64,000 nucleotides of DNA, taken from assembly GCA_965204575.1 (NCBI GenBank), contig OZ241993.1:192001-256000 (forward strand), written 5' to 3'. The stretch comes from an uncultured candidatus Porisulfidus sp. Its GTDB lineage: Bacteria > Pseudomonadota > Gammaproteobacteria > Poriferisulfidales > Poriferisulfidaceae. A program made the position numbers and the translations under genes. The notes under the pieces were generated by a model. It saw nothing but the letters and a program-made list of their open reading frames with translations, was not told the origin of the DNA and did not search any database. Of the stretch, positions 18,370-45,543 are shown piece by piece; the stretch's first letter is position 1, and each line of letters starts with the position of its first letter.

Positions 18370-19697
18370 TGGGGGGAATCCTCAGACAATGGAAACCCAC
18401 CGTCGATCAGCCGTGAATCAGTATCCTCGGGTGGGGTCAATCGAATCGGCTTGAGGGCGTCTCCGAGCATTTCATATTCAATAAAGGTCCGGATCGTTTC
18501 GGAAGCCAAGCGATGCGACGCCCGAACTTCGTTCAACACGAAATCCACCTCGCGGTTGACGCGCTCGAATGCCGTGTTCAGAGCCTTGCGGGCCGGAGCC
18601 AATGCCGCGACATTGGGTTCCTGGCGCCCTGCCATCAACGCCGCCCGGGCCAGGAACGTCTTTTCCACGATACGCGCGGTCGCCAGTTCCGAAGCCAAAC
18701 GCTGAATACGCCAGTCTGCGTCCGGACGAGCCTGCAGACCGTCGATCACTTCGCGACGCACTACGAGGTTCCGGCTGGAGATGTCGGCCAGGTCTTCTTC
18801 CCGCAATTCCACCGGGTCCGTCCTGACCAACCGCTCCAACACTTCTTCGATGCGTTTTCGCTCAGGTTCGATCAGGGGCAAAAGACCGTGTCCGGGAACA
18901 GTCGGGCTCGGAGCACCATCCACGAGGCTGATGGCCTGTTCTCCAGCAATATCGACCAGCCAGTTTGCTGCCTCTTCCGGAGTCTTGAACAGTGTCGCGA
19001 TTTCGGTTGCGCGTTCTGTCTTCTGGCACACGGCCGGCTCACCGTTGAGCAGGCACCATCCGGCGCGAGCGCTGTCGTATACCGGACGGATCATGTCCTG
19101 CCCGGCGCCGCCTGCACGCCGACCGCCTACCCAGGCCAGCCCTTTCTCAGGGGCGCTCTCCGCCTCTTCCTGCGCTTCCAGCACATTGCTTTCCTCGTGC
19201 GCTTGATGCCCCCATTCCAGCGACTTGGCAATCTTCGTCCAGGCCCCGGCTGGTCCTCGGTCAGCAATGCTTTTCTCCATCTCCTGGCAGGAACCCAGAG
19301 CCAATTTATAGGCTTCGCCCGCACGAATGGTGTAGTACTGCATCAGTTGGCAGGCACCTGGAAACGCCCGGCAGAACAGACCGCCCGGCAATGCCAAAAG
19401 AATTTGTTCTGGAAGCGATTTCAGGGTAGTCAACTGGTCTTCCAGCCGTTTCAGGATGTCTTGAACCTGGAAACGGAAATCGAATTTCCCGCAACTGTAC
19501 GTGGCTCCGACCTGGATATCCGGGAGCAGCTTGATGCGCAACGTCTCCCCGGGAGCCGTCGGAACCGCACGCGATCCTCCGAGCGTGTAATACAAGCCCA
19601 GTTCCTCGCTGCTCGGCAGTTTGATCTGCGCGTCGGACGCTGCCGGCAGTACTGATAGCGTCAAGCACCAAACACAGGCGCGGGTCCGGAAGATCAT
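18366..19697 (-). CDS. Integrating conjugative element protein, PFL_4711 (TIGR03755) like
   Basis: Signal peptide, LYYTLGG, SCGKFD, ALPG, SCQEME, GLAWVGG.RAGG.GQ, RLASELA, GRQEPNVA. Confidence 0.85.
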   Translation of the reverse strand: MIFRTRACVWCLTLSVLPAASDAQIKLPSSEELGLYYTLGGSRAVPTAPGETLRIKLLPDIQVGATYSCGKFDFRFQVQDILKRLEDQLTTLKSLPEQILLALPGGLFCRAFPGACQLMQYYTIRAGEAYKLALGSCQEMEKSIADRGPAGAWTKIAKSLEWGHQAHEESNVLEAQEEAESAPEKGLAWVGGRRAGGAGQDMIRPVYDSARAGWCLLNGEPAVCQKTERATEIATLFKTPEEAANWLVDIAGEQAISLVDGAPSPTVPGHGLLPLIEPERKRIEEVLERLVRTDPVELREEDLADISSRNLVVRREVIDGLQARPDADWRIQRLASELATARIVEKTFLARAALMAGRQEPNVAALAPARKALNTAFERVNREVDFVLNEVRASHRLASETIRTFIEYEMLGDALKPIRLTPPEDTDSRLIDGGFPLSEDSPQ

Positions 19698-32899: not shown

Positions 32900-34498
32900 T
32901 CACGCTTTATATCCGGACGTGATCGGGTAACGCCGGTCCCTTCCAAATGCCCGCTCTGTCGTCTTCACTCCCGGCGGCGCCTGTCGACGTTTGTACTCAC
33001 TCTTGAGCACCTGGGCAACCACGTCGCGAACCAGGTCAGAATCAAACCCCTGCTCGACAATCTCCGAAGGCGAACGATCCTCCTCAATGAACAGGCGCAA
33101 CACGGCGTCCAGCACGGCGTAGTCCGGCAGCGAATCAGAGTCTTTCTGGTCCGGCTTCAGCTCCGCCGACGGGGGGCGGGTCAGGATTCGCTCCGGAATG
33201 ATTTCCCGGTCACGGTTGCAGTGGCGGGCCAACTGGTAGACCCGGGTCTTGAAGATGTCCTTGAGCGGTGCAAATCCCCCCGCCATATCACCGTACAGGG
33301 TCGCATAGCCGACCGCCATCTCGCTTTTGTTTCCAGTCGTCAGCAACAATTTGCCACTGTGATTCGAGCGGGCCATCAGCAGCAAGCCGCGGATACGCGC
33401 CTGCAGGTTCTGGCAAACCAGATCGTCCTGCTCGGCTTCCGGCCCCAAGGTTTCAAGCATGGACTGGAAGGCAGGTTCAATTGACAGATTCAGGAACGAA
33501 ATGCCCAGACGCTCGCACAACAGCATAGCGTCCTCAATGCTGGCCCCCGATGTGTACCGCGAGGGCATCAACACCGCCTCCAGCCGTTCCGCCCCCAAGG
33601 CATCCGCCGCAATGACCAGCGTCAAGGCCGAATCGATTCCGCCAGACAGACCCACCAGCGCGCCAGAGGCACGGTGCTTGTCCACATAGTCGCGCACGCC
33701 CAGTACCAGCGCCTGGTATAGGGTCGCATCCTCATCCAGGTCTTCGACATCCTGCCGGGAACTGATCCAGCCCGAATCTTTGGGCGTCAGTTCCAGTTCA
33801 GCCTCGACGAACGAAGGAAGTTGCGCGATCCGCTGCCCGGAAGCATCCAGGACAAAACTTGCGCCATCGAAAACCAACTCGTCCTGCCCGCCGACCTGGT
33901 TGACGTACCAGACCGGGCAATCGGTTTCCCGCGCACGTGCACGTGCGACTTCCAAGCGCTTGGACGCCTTGCGCAGGTCGAACGGGGAAGCGTTCAGACA
34001 GACCAGAACTTCGGCCCCGGCCGCCGCCAGGTCTGCAGCCGGTTCCGGCTGCCATAAATCCTCGCAGATCAGCAACCCCAACCGCCGCCCGGCCTCGATG
34101 ACGAAAGGCTTCGAACCCGGAACGAAGTAGCGCTGCTCGTCAAAGACATCGTAATGCGGTAGAAGCTTCTTGCACGCGAAACCCGCCTGTCGGCCCTGAT
34201 GCAGGACGCAGGCCGCGTTGTACAAGGCACCGTTTTCGCGTACGGGAGCCCCCACGATCACCCAGTGTTCACCAACTTGATGCGCCAATTCTTCCAGGGC
34301 AGAAGCGATCTGGTCGATGAAATCATCCCGCAGCAGAAGATCTTCCGGGGGATAGCCGCACAACGCAAGTTCCGGAAAAACCCAGATCGAAGGTTCTTCC
34401 CAAGTTTCCAGCCACGCTTGGATGCGGACCCGGTTGCCATCAATGTCGCCGACCAGTGGGTTGAACTGGACAAGTCGAACAGACAGAAGATTAGTCAT
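32900..34498 (-). CDS. nadE: Glutamine-dependent NAD+ synthetase
   Basis: Nitrilase domain FPEL/ICEDLW, GLSGGIDS, GNKSE, YKRRQAPPG. Confidence 0.97.
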   Translation of the reverse strand: MTNLLSVRLVQFNPLVGDIDGNRVRIQAWLETWEEPSIWVFPELALCGYPPEDLLLRDDFIDQIASALEELAHQVGEHWVIVGAPVRENGALYNAACVLHQGRQAGFACKKLLPHYDVFDEQRYFVPGSKPFVIEAGRRLGLLICEDLWQPEPAADLAAAGAEVLVCLNASPFDLRKASKRLEVARARARETDCPVWYVNQVGGQDELVFDGASFVLDASGQRIAQLPSFVEAELELTPKDSGWISSRQDVEDLDEDATLYQALVLGVRDYVDKHRASGALVGLSGGIDSALTLVIAADALGAERLEAVLMPSRYTSGASIEDAMLLCERLGISFLNLSIEPAFQSMLETLGPEAEQDDLVCQNLQARIRGLLLMARSNHSGKLLLTTGNKSEMAVGYATLYGDMAGGFAPLKDIFKTRVYQLARHCNRDREIIPERILTRPPSAELKPDQKDSDSLPDYAVLDAVLRLFIEEDRSPSEIVEQGFDSDLVRDVVAQVLKSEYKRRQAPPGVKTTERAFGRDRRYPITSGYKA

Positions 34499-34530
34499 GA
34501 CGAGAGTGGCAAATATTCATCTATTTATAG

Positions 34531-34680
34531 GGGGCTCATATACAATAATCCGCAAGCAGACCTTGTATATCCATTGACAGATCATCGGGGTCGCTTGACC
34601 GAACCGTGCCCGAAGGCCCGGCCCGGACAGAGGCGAACGCCCCTCCCTGTCCAGCCGCGCCAGTCCCCAACGCCAATATA
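34531..34680 (-). ncRNA. Putative omega-RNA scaffold overlapping the tnpB 3' end
   Basis: Nested stems GACAG/CTGTC and GGGG..TCGC/GCGA.CCCC, a cUUCGg hairpin, terminal hairpin ATATACAA/TTGTATAT; 5' limit approximate. Confidence 0.6.
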
Positions 34681-35846
34681 TTGAACGCGGCATTGATGTC
34701 CGCATTCCCCGCGTATCCGCAGGATACGCATTCGAATCTCTCTCGCCGACGGTTCGCCTCCGCCACATGCCCGCATCGGTGACAACGCTGGCTCGTGTAC
34801 GCCGGGTCGACCGTCTCCACCCGGTGCGCCTTGTACTCCAGCATGAAGCGCAATCGGCCCCAGCCGCTTTCCGCAATGCTCCGGTTCAAGGTGGATTTCG
34901 CCTTGACGTGCTTGCCGGGTTTCTCCACCGTGCCTCTGGCTGACTTCATCATGTTCCTGATCTTCAGACCCTCCACGCAGACCGTCCCGAACCGGTCCGC
35001 CAAGTCATGGCTGACATGGTGCTTCCAGTTGTCCCGGATATAGGCGATCCTCCGGTGCAGTTTCGCCACGATTCTCCGCTCCTTCTCGCGGCGGTGCGAA
35101 TTCACCATGATGGCTTTGCCTTGTCGAGTCACCCTCGGCCCCCCGTCCGCATCCAGCAAAGGCACGCGCTTGCGCCTCTGCATCTTCCGTTGGTGCCGCT
35201 TCAGCCGGGTCTCAAGGCGGGACACGTCCGGCATGAAAATCCGCTCCGGCTCCGTGGTCGCCACGTTCCACTTCCCTAGGTCCAGCCCGACCGCCTCGCC
35301 GTTGTCCGCCAGTTCCGCATCCGGCACTTCCCAGAACACCGACACATACCACTTCCCGTTGGGATGCTTGGCCACCACCGCCTGCTTCGCCTTGCCGTAG
35401 GCCCACGGGTCGCCGCCCTGACGGTGGATCGGCACCCAGCCCACCTTGGTCACGTAGAGTTTGCCGTCCGCAATCCGCACGTTCTGCGGAATCGTGAACG
35501 AATCGCCGGCTTCCTTGTGCTTGAACTTCGGAAAGCCACGTTGGCCCTTCCGGGCCTCTCTCATCGCATCCGCATACCTTTTCAGCGCGTACCGCACTTC
35601 CGTATACGGCAACGCCTTCAGCCATTCGTGGCCTTCGCTGTTGCGCAGCCTCGTGAATGCCAGGCTTAGAGTGAAGAAAGTCGGCGAGGGTTTCTCTCCT
35701 TGCCCTTCTTTATAGGCTTTCATCGCATCCCGGTTCTGTCCGACCGCCCAGTTCCAGACGTAGCGGTTCGCCCCGGCGATGCCGGACAGCAGCTGTCCCC
35801 GGCGCAGGGTGCCGGGATACAGGCGATAGACGGATGAACGGATCAT
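34536..35846 (-). CDS. tnpB: RNA-guided endonuclease TnpB
   Basis: YRLYP HTH, RYVWN, GFPKFK, RuvC-I GLDLG, RuvC-II VEGL, YTSQRCHRCG...CVSCG zinc ribbon, RuvC-III ADINAA. Confidence 0.93.
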   Translation of the reverse strand: MIRSSVYRLYPGTLRRGQLLSGIAGANRYVWNWAVGQNRDAMKAYKEGQGEKPSPTFFTLSLAFTRLRNSEGHEWLKALPYTEVRYALKRYADAMREARKGQRGFPKFKHKEAGDSFTIPQNVRIADGKLYVTKVGWVPIHRQGGDPWAYGKAKQAVVAKHPNGKWYVSVFWEVPDAELADNGEAVGLDLGKWNVATTEPERIFMPDVSRLETRLKRHQRKMQRRKRVPLLDADGGPRVTRQGKAIMVNSHRREKERRIVAKLHRRIAYIRDNWKHHVSHDLADRFGTVCVEGLKIRNMMKSARGTVEKPGKHVKAKSTLNRSIAESGWGRLRFMLEYKAHRVETVDPAYTSQRCHRCGHVAEANRRRERFECVSCGYAGNADINAAFNILALGTGAAGQGGAFASVRAGPSGTVRSSDPDDLSMDIQGLLADYCI

Positions 35847-35852
35847 GAAAGG

Positions 35853-35882
35853 ATTATGCCATGCCGGAAACCGATTCGACAA
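35853..35882 (-). promoter_or_regulatory. Putative sigma-70 promoter of tnpB (possibly leaderless mRNA)
   Basis: TTGTCG-18 nt-CATAAT with extended TG, 6 nt before the ATG; no RBS. Confidence 0.5.
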
Positions 35883-35975
35883 AAACAAGATAAGGTATTG
35901 AATATATACGAATTATCGTGGGTTTTGCGGATTATCGTATACAATTCCCATTTATAGCCTATTGGGTGTTTGAAA

Positions 35976-36302
35976 TTACTTGGGAAATGCGATTCCAAAA
36001 TCCTCTCGAAACCTGTCGATCTGGTGCATGCGCTCATGCAAAATCGTAACAATGCCAATATCTCCATTTCTGAGCTTTTTCCAGTAGACGTAGTGTCTCT
36101 CGTATCGACAAAAATAACCATCCACTCCAAACTCTGCCGGAATCGGGCGGGACAGAATGCAATCCGCCTCAATCGCGGTGAACACCTCAAACAACCCTAT
36201 TATGTAAGCATCAGCCTGATTAATCCCCCACTTGTCGCGAGAGTATTGATAAATCTCATCAATACGGAGAGAAGCCGCTTCCTGAACGCGGACTGATGCC
36301 AT
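35976..36302 (-). CDS. parE: ParE/RelE family toxin
   Basis: IDEIYQYSRDKWGINQADAYI, HYVYW, IVTILHERM. Confidence 0.88.
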   Translation of the reverse strand: MASVRVQEAASLRIDEIYQYSRDKWGINQADAYIIGLFEVFTAIEADCILSRPIPAEFGVDGYFCRYERHYVYWKKLRNGDIGIVTILHERMHQIDRFREDFGIAFPK

Positions 36303-36310
36303 GCACAAGC

Positions 36311-36565
36311 CTACGTCTTGTTCCGTTCAATGACATCCGAAGCCGAAAGAGGATGAAATGAACTGTCTGGTGCGGCAAAAGCATGTTTCAGTTCAGCCTT
36401 AAGGCGTTCAAAAGCCTCCTGCTCCGCCCGTTCTTTATCACGTCGAATCAAGTCGCGAACATACTCGCTGACATTCTCGTACGACCCAGCCTCGCTGACA
36501 TTCGCTGAAACGAAATCACTGAGTGCACCACTGAGGCGAACCGTCATTGTTGTTGTACGTGCCAT
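36311..36565 (-). CDS. parD: ParD-like RHH antitoxin
   Basis: MTVRLSGAL...GSYENVSEYVRDLIRRD. Confidence 0.88.
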   Translation of the reverse strand: MARTTTMTVRLSGALSDFVSANVSEAGSYENVSEYVRDLIRRDKERAEQEAFERLKAELKHAFAAPDSSFHPLSASDVIERNKT

Positions 36566-44185: not shown

Positions 44186-44195
44186 TCCCTAAAGT

Positions 44196-45543
44196 GGCGC
44201 ATCACGGTTTTGTGTGGAATAGAGGGTCAGGGATAATGCTTCCGCGTTTTAGTCTGGAGTGTGGTCTGATGGAAGCAGTGAACAAGTTTTGCGAGATGCT
44301 GATGTTTCTGCATCCGCCGTGGGAGGTGGTCTCGGTGTCCTGTCGGGAAGGAGGCGAGGATCGCAGCCCGGGGCGCGTCACGATCGAGTTGGCCTATCAG
44401 GCGAAGAGCCTGGTGCCGTGTCCGGAATGCGGGACCTTGTGCAAGCGGCACGACACGAAGGCGCGGGAGTGGCGGGACCTGGATTTGATGGGTTGGCGCA
44501 CGACCTTGCGGGCCGAGGTGCCGCGGGCGAACTGCCCGGAGCACGGGATTCGGCAGATCGCGGTGCCGTGGGCGGAGTCCCACGGTCGTTTCACGATGCG
44601 CTTCGAGACGGAGGTGATCGAGGACCTGCTGGCGATGCCGCTGCGGGCGGTGGCGCAGAAGTGGGGGCTGAGCTGGCATCAGGCGGACGGCATCCGCTCG
44701 CGGGCGGTGCGGCGCGGATTGGCGCGACGCGGGCCGCAGGCACCGAAGCGGATCGGCATCGACGAGACCTCGTTCCAGAAGCGGCATGAATATGTCTCGA
44801 TCGTGGTCGATCAGAAGCCGGCGTCCGGGCGCAAGGGGGTGGTGCTGTATGTGGGAGACCGCAAGGATCAGGCAGCGGTGGAGCCGTTTTTCAGAGAGTT
44901 GGGCGACGCCGCCTGCGCGCAGGTTGAGACGGCCGCGATGGATCTGGCGCCGGCCTACATCGCGGCGACCCTGAAGTACACCCAGGCCGACATCTGCATC
45001 GACCGCTTCCATGTGGTGAGCCTGCTCAACCAGGCGGTGGACCAGGTGCGCCGGGCGGAGCACAAGAGGTTGCTGGCGCAAGGCGATGCCCGCCTGGCGG
45101 GCACCCGTTTCGACTGGCTGATGACCGAGGAGCGGATGGGCCCGGCCCGGCGCCAGCGTCTGGAAGCGTTACGCAAGGAGGACCTGAAGGTGGCCCGGGC
45201 CTGGATCCTGAAGGAACGGGCGGCGGAGATCTGGGCGTTGCGCGACCGGACCCTGGCCTACTACGCCTGGGAAGCCTGGCATCAGGCGGCGAAACGCTCG
45301 CGGCTGGCCCCGGTGATCAAGGCGGCGGAGACGATCTGGAAGCATGTGGAAGAGATCCTGAACGCCGCCGTGCTGGGCATCAGCAATGCCCTGTCGGAAT
45401 CCATCAACGCGAAAGTGCAGTGGATCAAACGCCAAGCCTGCGGCTACCGCAGCCGCGAGCGCTTCCGTGAAGCCATCTACTTTCACTTGGGCGGACTCGA
45501 CCTGTATCCGAGACCTCCGTTCCACACAATTCCGTGAAGACCC
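44196..45543 (+). mobile_element. ISL3-family insertion sequence
   Basis: 24-bp IRs GGCGCATCACGGTTTTGTGTGGAA / GGGTCTTCACGGAATTGTGTGGAA (19/24); 8-bp TSD CCTAAAGT at 44188-44195 and 45544-45551. Confidence 0.92.
44269..45537 (+). CDS. ISL3-family transposase
   Basis: CPECG zinc finger, WRDLD, VPWAE, IGIDETS, IDRFHV, SESINAK, GYRS. Confidence 0.93.
   Translation: MEAVNKFCEMLMFLHPPWEVVSVSCREGGEDRSPGRVTIELAYQAKSLVPCPECGTLCKRHDTKAREWRDLDLMGWRTTLRAEVPRANCPEHGIRQIAVPWAESHGRFTMRFETEVIEDLLAMPLRAVAQKWGLSWHQADGIRSRAVRRGLARRGPQAPKRIGIDETSFQKRHEYVSIVVDQKPASGRKGVVLYVGDRKDQAAVEPFFRELGDAACAQVETAAMDLAPAYIAATLKYTQADICIDRFHVVSLLNQAVDQVRRAEHKRLLAQGDARLAGTRFDWLMTEERMGPARRQRLEALRKEDLKVARAWILKERAAEIWALRDRTLAYYAWEAWHQAAKRSRLAPVIKAAETIWKHVEEILNAAVLGISNALSESINAKVQWIKRQACGYRSRERFREAIYFHLGGLDLYPRPPFHTIP

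Follow-up and report, generated by a model that had tools for sequence, protein, structure and literature searches.

A stretch of 64,000 nucleotides from the genome of an uncultured candidatus Porisulfidus sp. (contig OZ241993.1; below, the window means this whole stretch) contains a 1419-bp unit at positions 34531-35949, in which one intact tnpB gene lies between imperfect terminal inverted repeats (TIRs). Based on all the evidence, it was concluded that the unit is best explained as a non-autonomous transposon of the IS1595 type carrying a TnpB nuclease and its putative omegaRNA, which are kept by selection; the probability of this explanation was put at about 0.7. The narrower assignment, an IS1595-type non-autonomous shell with an active TnpB cargo, was considered highly probable. 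Although DDE-associated TnpBs have been known since 2023, such a shell around a bacterial TnpB is a new variant.

IS1595-type ends of the element

The left end (LE, tnpB 5' side) and the right end (RE, tnpB 3' side) were compared with those of other transposons by a reciprocal 25-mer scan. At least 17 of 25 positions were matched 20 times by the LE and 12 times by the RE in 30 IS1595 loci, whereas neither end gave such a match in nine ISL3 loci; shuffled queries gave 0-2 matches (about 1.1-1.3 for the IS1595 loci). Therefore, the shell was assigned to the IS1595 type, and ISL3 was rejected as the mobilising partner of the element and its relatives (family A, see below). The nearest IS1595 ends agreed with the element at 19/25 positions (loci L188, L194 and L187), and the one nearest to the RE consensus of the sister copies agreed at 20/25 (L209).

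Ends of the form GGGAAYTAT(A/G)TA... are common to the element and IS1595 transposons of the same order, and the start GGGAATT.TATAC is shared with 17 independent autonomous IS1595 copies. The latter were 1246-1410 bp long, plus one passenger-carrying form of 2680 bp, and had perfect repeats starting GGGAATTAT..., GGGAACTATATAC... or GGGACTTATAG...; all 17 counted copies were flanked by exact 8-bp AT-rich duplications. The end consensus of the IS1595 family in ISfinder is ggnnatTAT or GGGgctg. Of the 53 genomes of the order, 30 had the IS1595 DDE domain (PF12762), as did 13 of the 15 sister genomes of the genus.

Closer agreement was found between autonomous IS1595 elements and other tnpB elements. 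The passenger-carrying form (L187 44-2723, G005:C2) encodes, in addition to a 307-aa transposase (NF033547, 200 bits), a 399-aa protein in which an adenine-methyltransferase is joined to an HNH domain; it is flanked by the duplication GGCCATTT, and has repeats identical at 24/25 positions to those of a tnpB element of the source genome (copy C6 of family C). Similarly, the tnpB-element repeats GGGAATTATATAYCTAAATCTA of genome G020 matched an IS1595 end of the same genome at 21/22 positions (counted by eye).

The element thus resembles the IS1595 family in its GGG-starting repeats (~20-40 bp in that family), in the exact 8-bp AT-rich duplications and in the tolerance for passengers seen in L187. 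It differs in having imperfect repeats (20/25), an RNA-guided nuclease as cargo and no transposase inside, and for the last reason it is non-autonomous and not a full member of the family. By TIR type, TSD (target-site duplication) length and the absent transposase it is a non-autonomous IS1595-family derivative, as had been supposed in a preliminary description of this DNA made from the letters alone.

Structure and setting of the element

The source genome (G000) is a single contig of 1.82 Mb with a completeness of 98.75%, and the window corresponds to G000:C1:192001-256000. The features, with the strand where one applies, were as follows.

34523..34530: TSD on the tnpB 3' side, exact ATTTATAG on the + strand, CTATAAAT in tnpB orientation.
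34531..34555: TIR of the RE (tnpB 3' side), GGGGCTCATATACAATAATCCGCAA.
35925..35949: TIR of the LE (tnpB 5' side), reverse complement GGGAATTGTATACGATAATCCGCAA.
35950..35957: TSD on the tnpB 5' side, exact ATTTATAG.
34536..35846, - strand: tnpB coding sequence, 436 aa plus stop.
35847..35924, - strand: non-coding left-end region upstream of tnpB, presumed to hold the promoter; the least conserved part of the element (0.59-0.72 identity).
34531..34732, - strand: putative omegaRNA scaffold, overlapping the tnpB 3' end and reaching the RE boundary.
35958..35958, - strand: base resembling a target-adjacent motif (TAM), G when read on the tnpB strand, adjoining the LE-side duplication on its 5' side.
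34511..34530, - strand: predicted guide-matching stretch, comprising the duplication and ~12 flanking nt, a short way upstream of where nadE starts (34498).

The LE and RE are identical at 20 of 25 positions, and the tnpB stop is only 5 nt away from the element end. In a repeat search of 34400-36100 these TIRs formed the longest inverted pair (30 nt, 77%), and the direct repeat of 8 bp was also listed. Estimated from the genome base composition, ~8e-5 such TIR and TSD pairs are expected by chance per 64-kb window. The preliminary description had reported a 1419-bp unit filled by tnpB, 25-bp TIRs and an exact 8-bp ATTTATAG on both sides, and coordinates and sequence agreed with it in every detail. 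Its statement that no transposase is encoded within the element was also upheld, tnpB being the sole long open reading frame (ORF) with a family match. A miniature inverted-repeat transposable element (MITE) would be non-coding and a few hundred bp long; this element measures 1419 bp and holds a 436-aa ORF under selection.

The element is flanked by nadE (32900-34498, - strand) and parE (35976-36308, - strand), the latter within a parE/parD pair (35976-36565, - strand). The tnpB and nadE genes are co-oriented, the stop of the former being separated by only 37 nt from the start of the latter. Judging from this arrangement, nadE may be expressed in part by read-through from the element.

Copies and insertion sites of family A

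Three copies of the element, termed family A, were found by BLAST in G000: the window copy (100%) and those at 266612-268030 (89%) and 362141-about 363575 (77%). Six more full-length copies came from sister genomes of the same genus. The alignment of these copies ends exactly at the inverted repeats, outside of which the mean pairwise identity falls to 0.22. A duplication of at least 6/8 was kept in six of the nine full-length copies, and the 8-mer was different each time; in tnpB orientation, the flanking pairs were CTATAAAT/CTATAAAT, AAAACTAG/AAAGCTAG, AATAACTG/AATGACCG, ATTTGTTT/ATTTGGTT, AAAGTTTT/AAAGTTTT and CTTTTTTT/CTTTTTTT. Hence, the preliminary expectation of further copies sharing both TIRs and having TSDs of their own held for the two additional copies of the genome and the six of the sister genomes, with the three of nine that show no duplication as the exception. 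The same TIR ends, with duplications in 6/9 copies, were found in place of IS605/IS607-type boundaries without duplication.

An empty allele, with a single ATTTATAG between parE and nadE, had also been anticipated, and this was borne out in part. In the sister species G002 and G007 the syntenic nadE-parE loci are free of the element and its repeats, the two genes being adjacent with ~70 bp of diverged spacer. The single-copy ATTTATAG was not seen in them, the intergenic DNA of G002 and G007 being too diverged. A convincing element repeat was retained in none of the nine syntenic loci, the sole match being one of 13/17 in L004. The parE/parD pair itself is absent in the sister genomes G011, G012, G005 and G003, where nadE is followed within ~60 bp by a PQQ-dehydrogenase-like gene.

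Other units with A-type repeats were also met. In G017 (L017 ~1097-2445, G017:C1 ~803096-804444) such repeats and ~100 nt of the tnpB 3'/omegaRNA region are retained, and a 302-aa ORF without a Pfam match stands in place of tnpB. In G005 (L018 ~733-975, G005:C2 ~18732-18975) a MITE-like unit of ~229-240 bp has A-type repeats GGAGACATACAATAATCCGCAAGG ... GGGAAAACACAATAATCCGCAAA and no clear duplication. An apparent fusion, the 886-aa open frame of L270 (G012), proved to be a family-A tnpB into which an IS110 element has inserted.

TnpB protein and its conservation

Cas12 evolved from TnpB, a compact nuclease for genome editing. What TnpB does in nature has been established for IS200/IS605 and IS607 elements, which are excised without a scar and inserted next to a TAM. 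The 436-aa protein of the element scored 75.9 bits with PF07282, 44.3 with PF01385 and 22.8 with PF12323 (HTH_OrfB_IS605, OrfB_IS605 and Cas12f1-like_TNB were matched), and 235.5 bits with NCBIfam NF040570, the cut-off of which is 100. Residues 4-400 aligned with the solved ISDra2 TnpB structures 8bf8/8exa (E 1e-21), and the catalytic residues were assigned as in ISDra2 TnpB. The acidic motifs GLDLG, VEGL and NADINAA and two CxxC pairs were visible when the protein was aligned with 9yyg, a designed TnpB that is closely related. The three RuvC acidic residues and the zinc ribbon of the preliminary description were thus recovered as D-E-D motifs and both CxxC pairs in this alignment.

All 12 family-A tnpB ORFs were intact and 432-438 aa long, with pairwise omega values of 0.08-0.20 at dS of 0.26-2.1. 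It was concluded that tnpB is under purifying selection across many separate insertions. The protein may cleave DNA in an RNA-guided and TAM-dependent manner, an activity on which the flank asymmetry described below is the one observation to bear.

tnpB families in two kinds of shell

The source genome contains 16 tnpB loci, three of family A, six of family B and seven of family C, the last two families sharing 36-39% identity with A. Repeats of ~25 bp that start with GG(G) occur in all three, and each copy has an 8-bp AT-rich duplication of its own. Every one of the 16 copies lies in a DDE shell, which is of the IS1595 type in families A and C and of the ISL3 type in family B.

Family B comprises six solo-tnpB loci of ~1.46 kb in G000:C1 (e.g. 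105881-107336 and 1468268-1469734) with CTG-like flanks. Their repeats (e.g. GGTCTTCACGGATTCGTGTGGAAA) match the ISL3 ends of the same genome, with ...TTYGTGTGGAA shared. In the 25-mer scan, the two ends of family B gave 18 and 14 matches of at least 17/25 in the ISL3 loci (best 21/25), compared with 2 and 2 in the IS1595 loci. Hence, the ISL3-type terminal repeats (...GTGTGGAA) were found in family B and not in the ends of the window element, and it is family B that shares GG-starting repeats and 8-bp duplications with the ISL3 family.

The ISL3-family insertion sequence of G000 is 1349 bp long and present in three copies that are 100% identical (window 44195-45543, G000:C1 36848-38195 and 396973-398321). 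It encodes a 433-aa transposase (NF033550, 283 bits; 44236-45534 in the window copy) between the TIRs GGCGCATCACGGTTTTGTGTGGAA / GGGTCTTCACGGAATTGTGTGGAA, and its insertions are flanked by the exact 8-bp duplications CCTAAAGT, AATCTATT and GAACATTT. This element is recently active. Two other ISL3 candidates were rejected: a fragment in G014 (L025) was truncated and had no ends, and the PF01610 match at G000:793189 belonged to a fatty-acid-desaturase-like protein with an ISL3-like tail, a known domain (NF049919). The latter protein (~405-416 aa; L016 1483-2733, G000:C1 ~793171-794421) has one locus in most genomes of the order, and its DesA/ISL3 tail, curated as NF049919, explains the weak PF01610 matches in 35 of the 53 genomes. 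G000 also has an IS1380-like element (PF13701) in about five copies, including G000:C1 1066530-1068416, and IS110-family elements of two kinds (24145-25603 and 1241919-1243330).

TnpB homologues were found at E<=1e-40 in 21 of the 53 genomes of the order, and solo tnpB elements with IS1595-type repeats and exact duplications occurred in both of its families that carry tnpB. When 400 genomes of the class were searched at E<=1e-80, the genus alone was returned, at a threshold too strict for more and with G299 not scored; by tblastn against plasmids, 4031 records were matched, and the 30 listed had an uninformative identity of 32.4-36.4%. One insertion is older than a species split: copy C7 of family C (L225, G000:C1 ~1618195-1619509) shares both flanks with a copy of G011 (L218, G011:C12 10062-11377) and is thus orthologous to it, and the C7 element is almost intact despite predating the separation of G000 and G011.

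In a midpoint-rooted FastTree of 53 TnpBs, the proteins from ISL3 shells formed one clade beside family A, and the other clades came from IS1595 shells. The tree fits a single switch of shell, although under a midpoint root the order of switching is not established. Proteins of 53 of the 58 sources were included (G000 copies B2, B3, C6 and C7 and L281 were left out), and eight shell labels were given as unknown.

Asymmetry of the flanks

The base immediately 5' of the LE-side duplication (position -1) was recorded for tnpB elements oriented left to right, wherever the duplication was recognisable. Among 33 elements it was G in 27, A in 6 and a pyrimidine in none. By family, G was found in 6/6 elements of A, in 11/11 of B and in six of 11 of C, where the other five had A; five further elements (from G009, G020, G017 and G001) had four G and one A. 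In family B, 8/11 elements also had C at -3, and 6/11 had T at -2. The tallies at -1, -2 and -3 were read by eye from printed flanks.

Autonomous elements served as controls. In 25 insertions (8 of ISL3 and 17 of IS1595), 8 of the 50 sides had G and 19 had a purine, so that the tnpB elements differed from them with p = 2.5e-9 for G and 6.7e-10 for purine (Fisher). When exact 8/8 duplications alone were used, 12 G and 4 A were counted in 16 elements (p = 2.5e-5). The mirror base on the RE side was unbiased, its complement being a purine in 5 of 11 family-C copies, and no CAG mirror of CTG was found in the RE-side flanks of family B. The flank signal follows tnpB and its orientation and neither of the transposases. 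The base 5' of the LE-side duplication looks like a TAM, in which case the ...CCC end of the element would be an anti-TAM.

Left out of the census were, in family A, L159, L161 and L164 (no duplication of at least 6/8) and L165-L168 (LE undefined); in family B, B3, L175 and L181, in all three of which the projected -1 base was G; in family C, L217, L220, L227, L222 and L233, with the orthologous L218 and L225 counted once; and in other families L274, L276, L277, L278 and L281. Omitted controls were L254, L255, L189 and L260 (register or duplication unclear) as well as L263, L264, L188, L190, L193, L194 and L202, for want of a repeat pair found by script.

Putative omegaRNA region

The last ~200 nt of the element, from the RuvC-III region to the RE, were the best-conserved part in the nine copies by mean pairwise identity. 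Five of six 30-nt windows in this region had values of 0.91-0.98 and one had 0.86, compared with ~0.82 for the rest of the ORF, and one block in the tnpB 3' region was invariant in 11 copies. The tnpB 3' region was folded by RNAalifold into hairpins with a few compensatory pairs. In the terminal hairpin, the inner half of the RE repeat pairs with a complementary stretch just upstream; family C has the same 3' layout with a different repeat sequence. It was proposed from this fold that the omegaRNA scaffold may share sequence with the transposase-binding end.

Contigs from one run of an RNA library, 90-95% alike, cover 34531-34723 and parts of tnpB, by which transcription is not shown. Being only 90-95% alike, these pieces come from relatives. 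Two of the contigs stop matching at 34531 and continue into unlike flanks.

Proposed mechanism

The following sequence of events was proposed. A transposase of the IS1595 family, produced in the same cell from outside the element, would have moved it, and as the sole IS1595 copy of G000 is broken, the element is probably no longer mobile there. Transcription would read through the RE, and the guide would consist of the 3' copy of the duplication and the right flank. The scaffold of IS200/IS605 TnpBs ends at the transposon boundary (PMC10711439, in the available portions); the register of the guide was chosen by analogy with it, and the position of the conserved purine fits this choice. In an element-free allele, a TAM with a purine (mostly G) as its last base would stand before the same target; TnpB would cut this allele, and the break would be repaired from a copy still holding the element. 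In the occupied allele, the target would be preceded by the ...CCC end of the element, which is presumed not to be a TAM, so that the element would spare itself from cutting. Old insertions would then be enriched for sites whose empty allele TnpB can cut.

A role of TnpB in homing or retention, as suggested in the preliminary description, is consistent with this scheme. The TAM/anti-TAM mechanism of retention was given slightly less than even odds. A broader proposal is tentative and somewhat more likely to fail than to hold: the TnpB/omegaRNA pair would be a portable retention cassette carried by the unrelated IS1595 and ISL3 elements within one small-genome gammaproteobacterial lineage, with a guide starting with the 3' duplication, a TAM just outside the 5' copy (purine/G, and CTG in the ISL3-shell clade) and the invariant ...CCC end as the anti-TAM.

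Alternative explanations

Several observations weigh against the proposed explanation. As to the shell, no IS1595 transposase with the exact repeats of the element was found in the 53 genomes of the order, so that of the preliminary proposal the IS1595 type of the ends stood, with 20 and 12 matches compared with none in ISL3, and the partner with matching ends did not, the best agreement being 19-20/25. An exact 17-mer scan of the A-type repeat over 185,579 species genomes returned 102 stretches, approximately the chance number, and no autonomous partner; the credible matches were only a handful, all in sponge-associated gammaproteobacterial metagenome-assembled genomes of the same genus. The only IS1595 transposase in G000 is split and truncated (1081566-1082527) and lacks a second end; its one C-type-like end agreed at 16/24 positions (counted by eye). 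This remnant was rejected as the direct partner, having no second end and no match to the A-type ends. It also adjoins a methyltransferase gene (1082542-1083480). A tnpB and a DDE transposase gene occurred together in none of the 147 fetched loci, and thus the capture itself was not observed. Three of the nine full-length family-A copies (L159, L161 and L164) have no recognisable duplication, and the copies are old, their identity of 77-90% giving no sign of recent movement. As to the RNA, no Rfam family matched the 3' region (apart from a chance-level snoRNA match, E 0.2), and covariation in the putative omegaRNA is sparse in a region that is also coding. As to the flanks, the insertion sites are independent, yet they belong to only a few families of elements from related genomes; one conserved purine makes a weak TAM beside the known ones of 4-5 nt; and the asymmetry could arise from a transposase acting on unequal ends.

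The last point leads to the reading in which the IS1595 shell holds but the purine is not a TAM, being due to an asymmetric target preference of the transposase or to a host bias, with TnpB kept for some other role. This was judged rather unlikely. It is favoured by the fact that only one position is strongly conserved and that the repeats of the tnpB elements are imperfect (20/25) when those of autonomous copies are near-perfect; the TAM assignment, moreover, was made from sequence. However, the purine rule is common to shells of the IS1595 and ISL3 types, the transposases of which are unrelated and the autonomous copies of which are unbiased. Family B adds the preferences at -3 and -2, and all REs of the elements end in C, a base class never seen at -1. 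It was considered very unlikely that the shell is of the ISL3 type and is moved by the intact ISL3 transposase of G000. This is the only intact DDE transposase of the genome that makes 8-bp duplications, and family B of the same genome does have ISL3-type repeats, with its 14-18 matches. The ends of the window element, however, had none in the nine ISL3 loci and share nothing with ISL3 GGCGCATCACGGTTTTGTGTGGAA beyond GGG. Further, the ISL3 copies are 100% identical and those of family A 77-89%, so that the recent ISL3 burst excluded family A.

The chance that this is an ordinary tnpB-only element of the IS200/IS605 family (IS1341 group), with incidental repeats and movement as single-stranded DNA by a Y1 TnpA, was regarded as negligible. 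TnpB is the usual cargo of IS200/IS605, and the protein is nearer to the IS200-type than to the IS607-type TnpB model of NCBIfam (175 and 96 bits, both below the cut-off). Elements of the IS1341 group likewise carry a single tnpB of the same protein family, measure ~1.3-1.5 kb and have a gene that reaches the element end with its 3' side, and tnpB-only elements without TIRs and TSDs were described by Bao and Jurka (PMC3627910, in the available portions). The window element, in contrast, has inverted repeats and variable 8-bp duplications, and IS200/IS605 elements, classic hosts of TnpB, have neither (PMC3627910 and PMC13565253, in the available portions), as the preliminary description had correctly stated. 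In the IS1341 group, subterminal hairpins take the place of terminal inverted repeats. Other marks of that group, insertion 3' of a fixed 4-5-nt motif and a Y1 (HUH) TnpA, were not found here. In several families, 33 elements in all have such repeats and duplications, with 8-mers that vary between them; the chance level is ~8e-5, and the ends match IS1595 elements. The Y1 TnpA domain (PF01797) gave no match in G000, when the positive control was matched in 6 of 14 reference genomes; hence the IS200/IS605 mechanism has no enzyme there. It was also held to be extremely unlikely that tnpB has been domesticated as a nuclease-dead regulator (TldR-like) or is a pseudogene decaying in a dead transposon. 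The element is probably immobile in G000 and its copies are old, but the D/E/D motifs and zinc ribbon are intact, 12/12 ORFs are full-length with omega of 0.08-0.20, and tnpB remains inside transposon ends at many different loci. The IS1595-type transposon with a selected TnpB/omegaRNA cargo was therefore retained as the overall best explanation.

Relation to known systems

Six branches of DDE-associated TnpBs (DDE-1 to DDE-6) with inverted terminal repeats, and solo TnpBs that share the ends of such branches and were probably mobilised in trans, were reported by Altae-Tran et al. in 2023 (PMC10691335). The window element is like them in the position of tnpB within inverted repeats, in the gene 3' end near the transposon end and in solo copies presumed to be mobilised in trans; no register of TAM and duplication and no flank asymmetry are described in the available part of that paper. 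IS630 is the only DDE partner named in its main text, and the supplements may list IS1595- or ISL3-linked branches. A 2026 review (PMC13565253) names ISL2, IS630 and IS1031 as DDE partners of TnpB and argues that DDE elements should gain little from TnpB, the pairing being rare in prokaryotes. Neither IS1595 nor ISL3 is named as a partner in the main text of the former or in the available portions of the latter; the titles and abstracts by which the remaining literature on TnpB with ISL3 or IS1595 was mostly judged contained incidental co-mentions only. Thus, the partnership called poorly characterised in the preliminary description had been reported in general form in 2023 (PMC10691335), while an IS1595 partner is not named in the main text of that report.

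Fanzor offers a further parallel, as a TnpB-type nuclease that occurs in transposons with TIRs and TSDs of several DDE superfamilies, and its guide-RNA scaffolds include end bases recognised by the transposase (PMC10711439 and PMC13565253, in the available portions). In the Fanzor structures reported, the 5' duplication lies in the TAM and the 3' duplication in the scaffold (PMC13565253), and the window element is bacterial, not eukaryotic. The conserved base outside the variable 8-bp duplication suggests that here, unlike in Fanzor, the 3' duplication would be part of the guide.

Significance

Two DDE families host TnpB in one lineage, with 16 tnpB copies in a genome of 1.8 Mb and a flank signature that is absent from autonomous elements with the same ends. 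With all copies in DDE shells and tnpB under purifying selection, the lineage is a natural counter-example to the low-benefit argument of the 2026 review (PMC13565253), as far as it is set out in the available portions. It also poses a testable question, namely how a guide-RNA nuclease tells self from non-self when insertion duplicates a variable 8-bp target, and provides TnpB variants whose TAM may be very short. The flank footprint gives a concrete and testable model for the RNA-guided retention of duplication-making transposons. If this model is true, a TAM would be readable from genomes alone as a survivorship footprint, and restorative homing would work for cut-and-paste elements whose transposases have no matching target preference.

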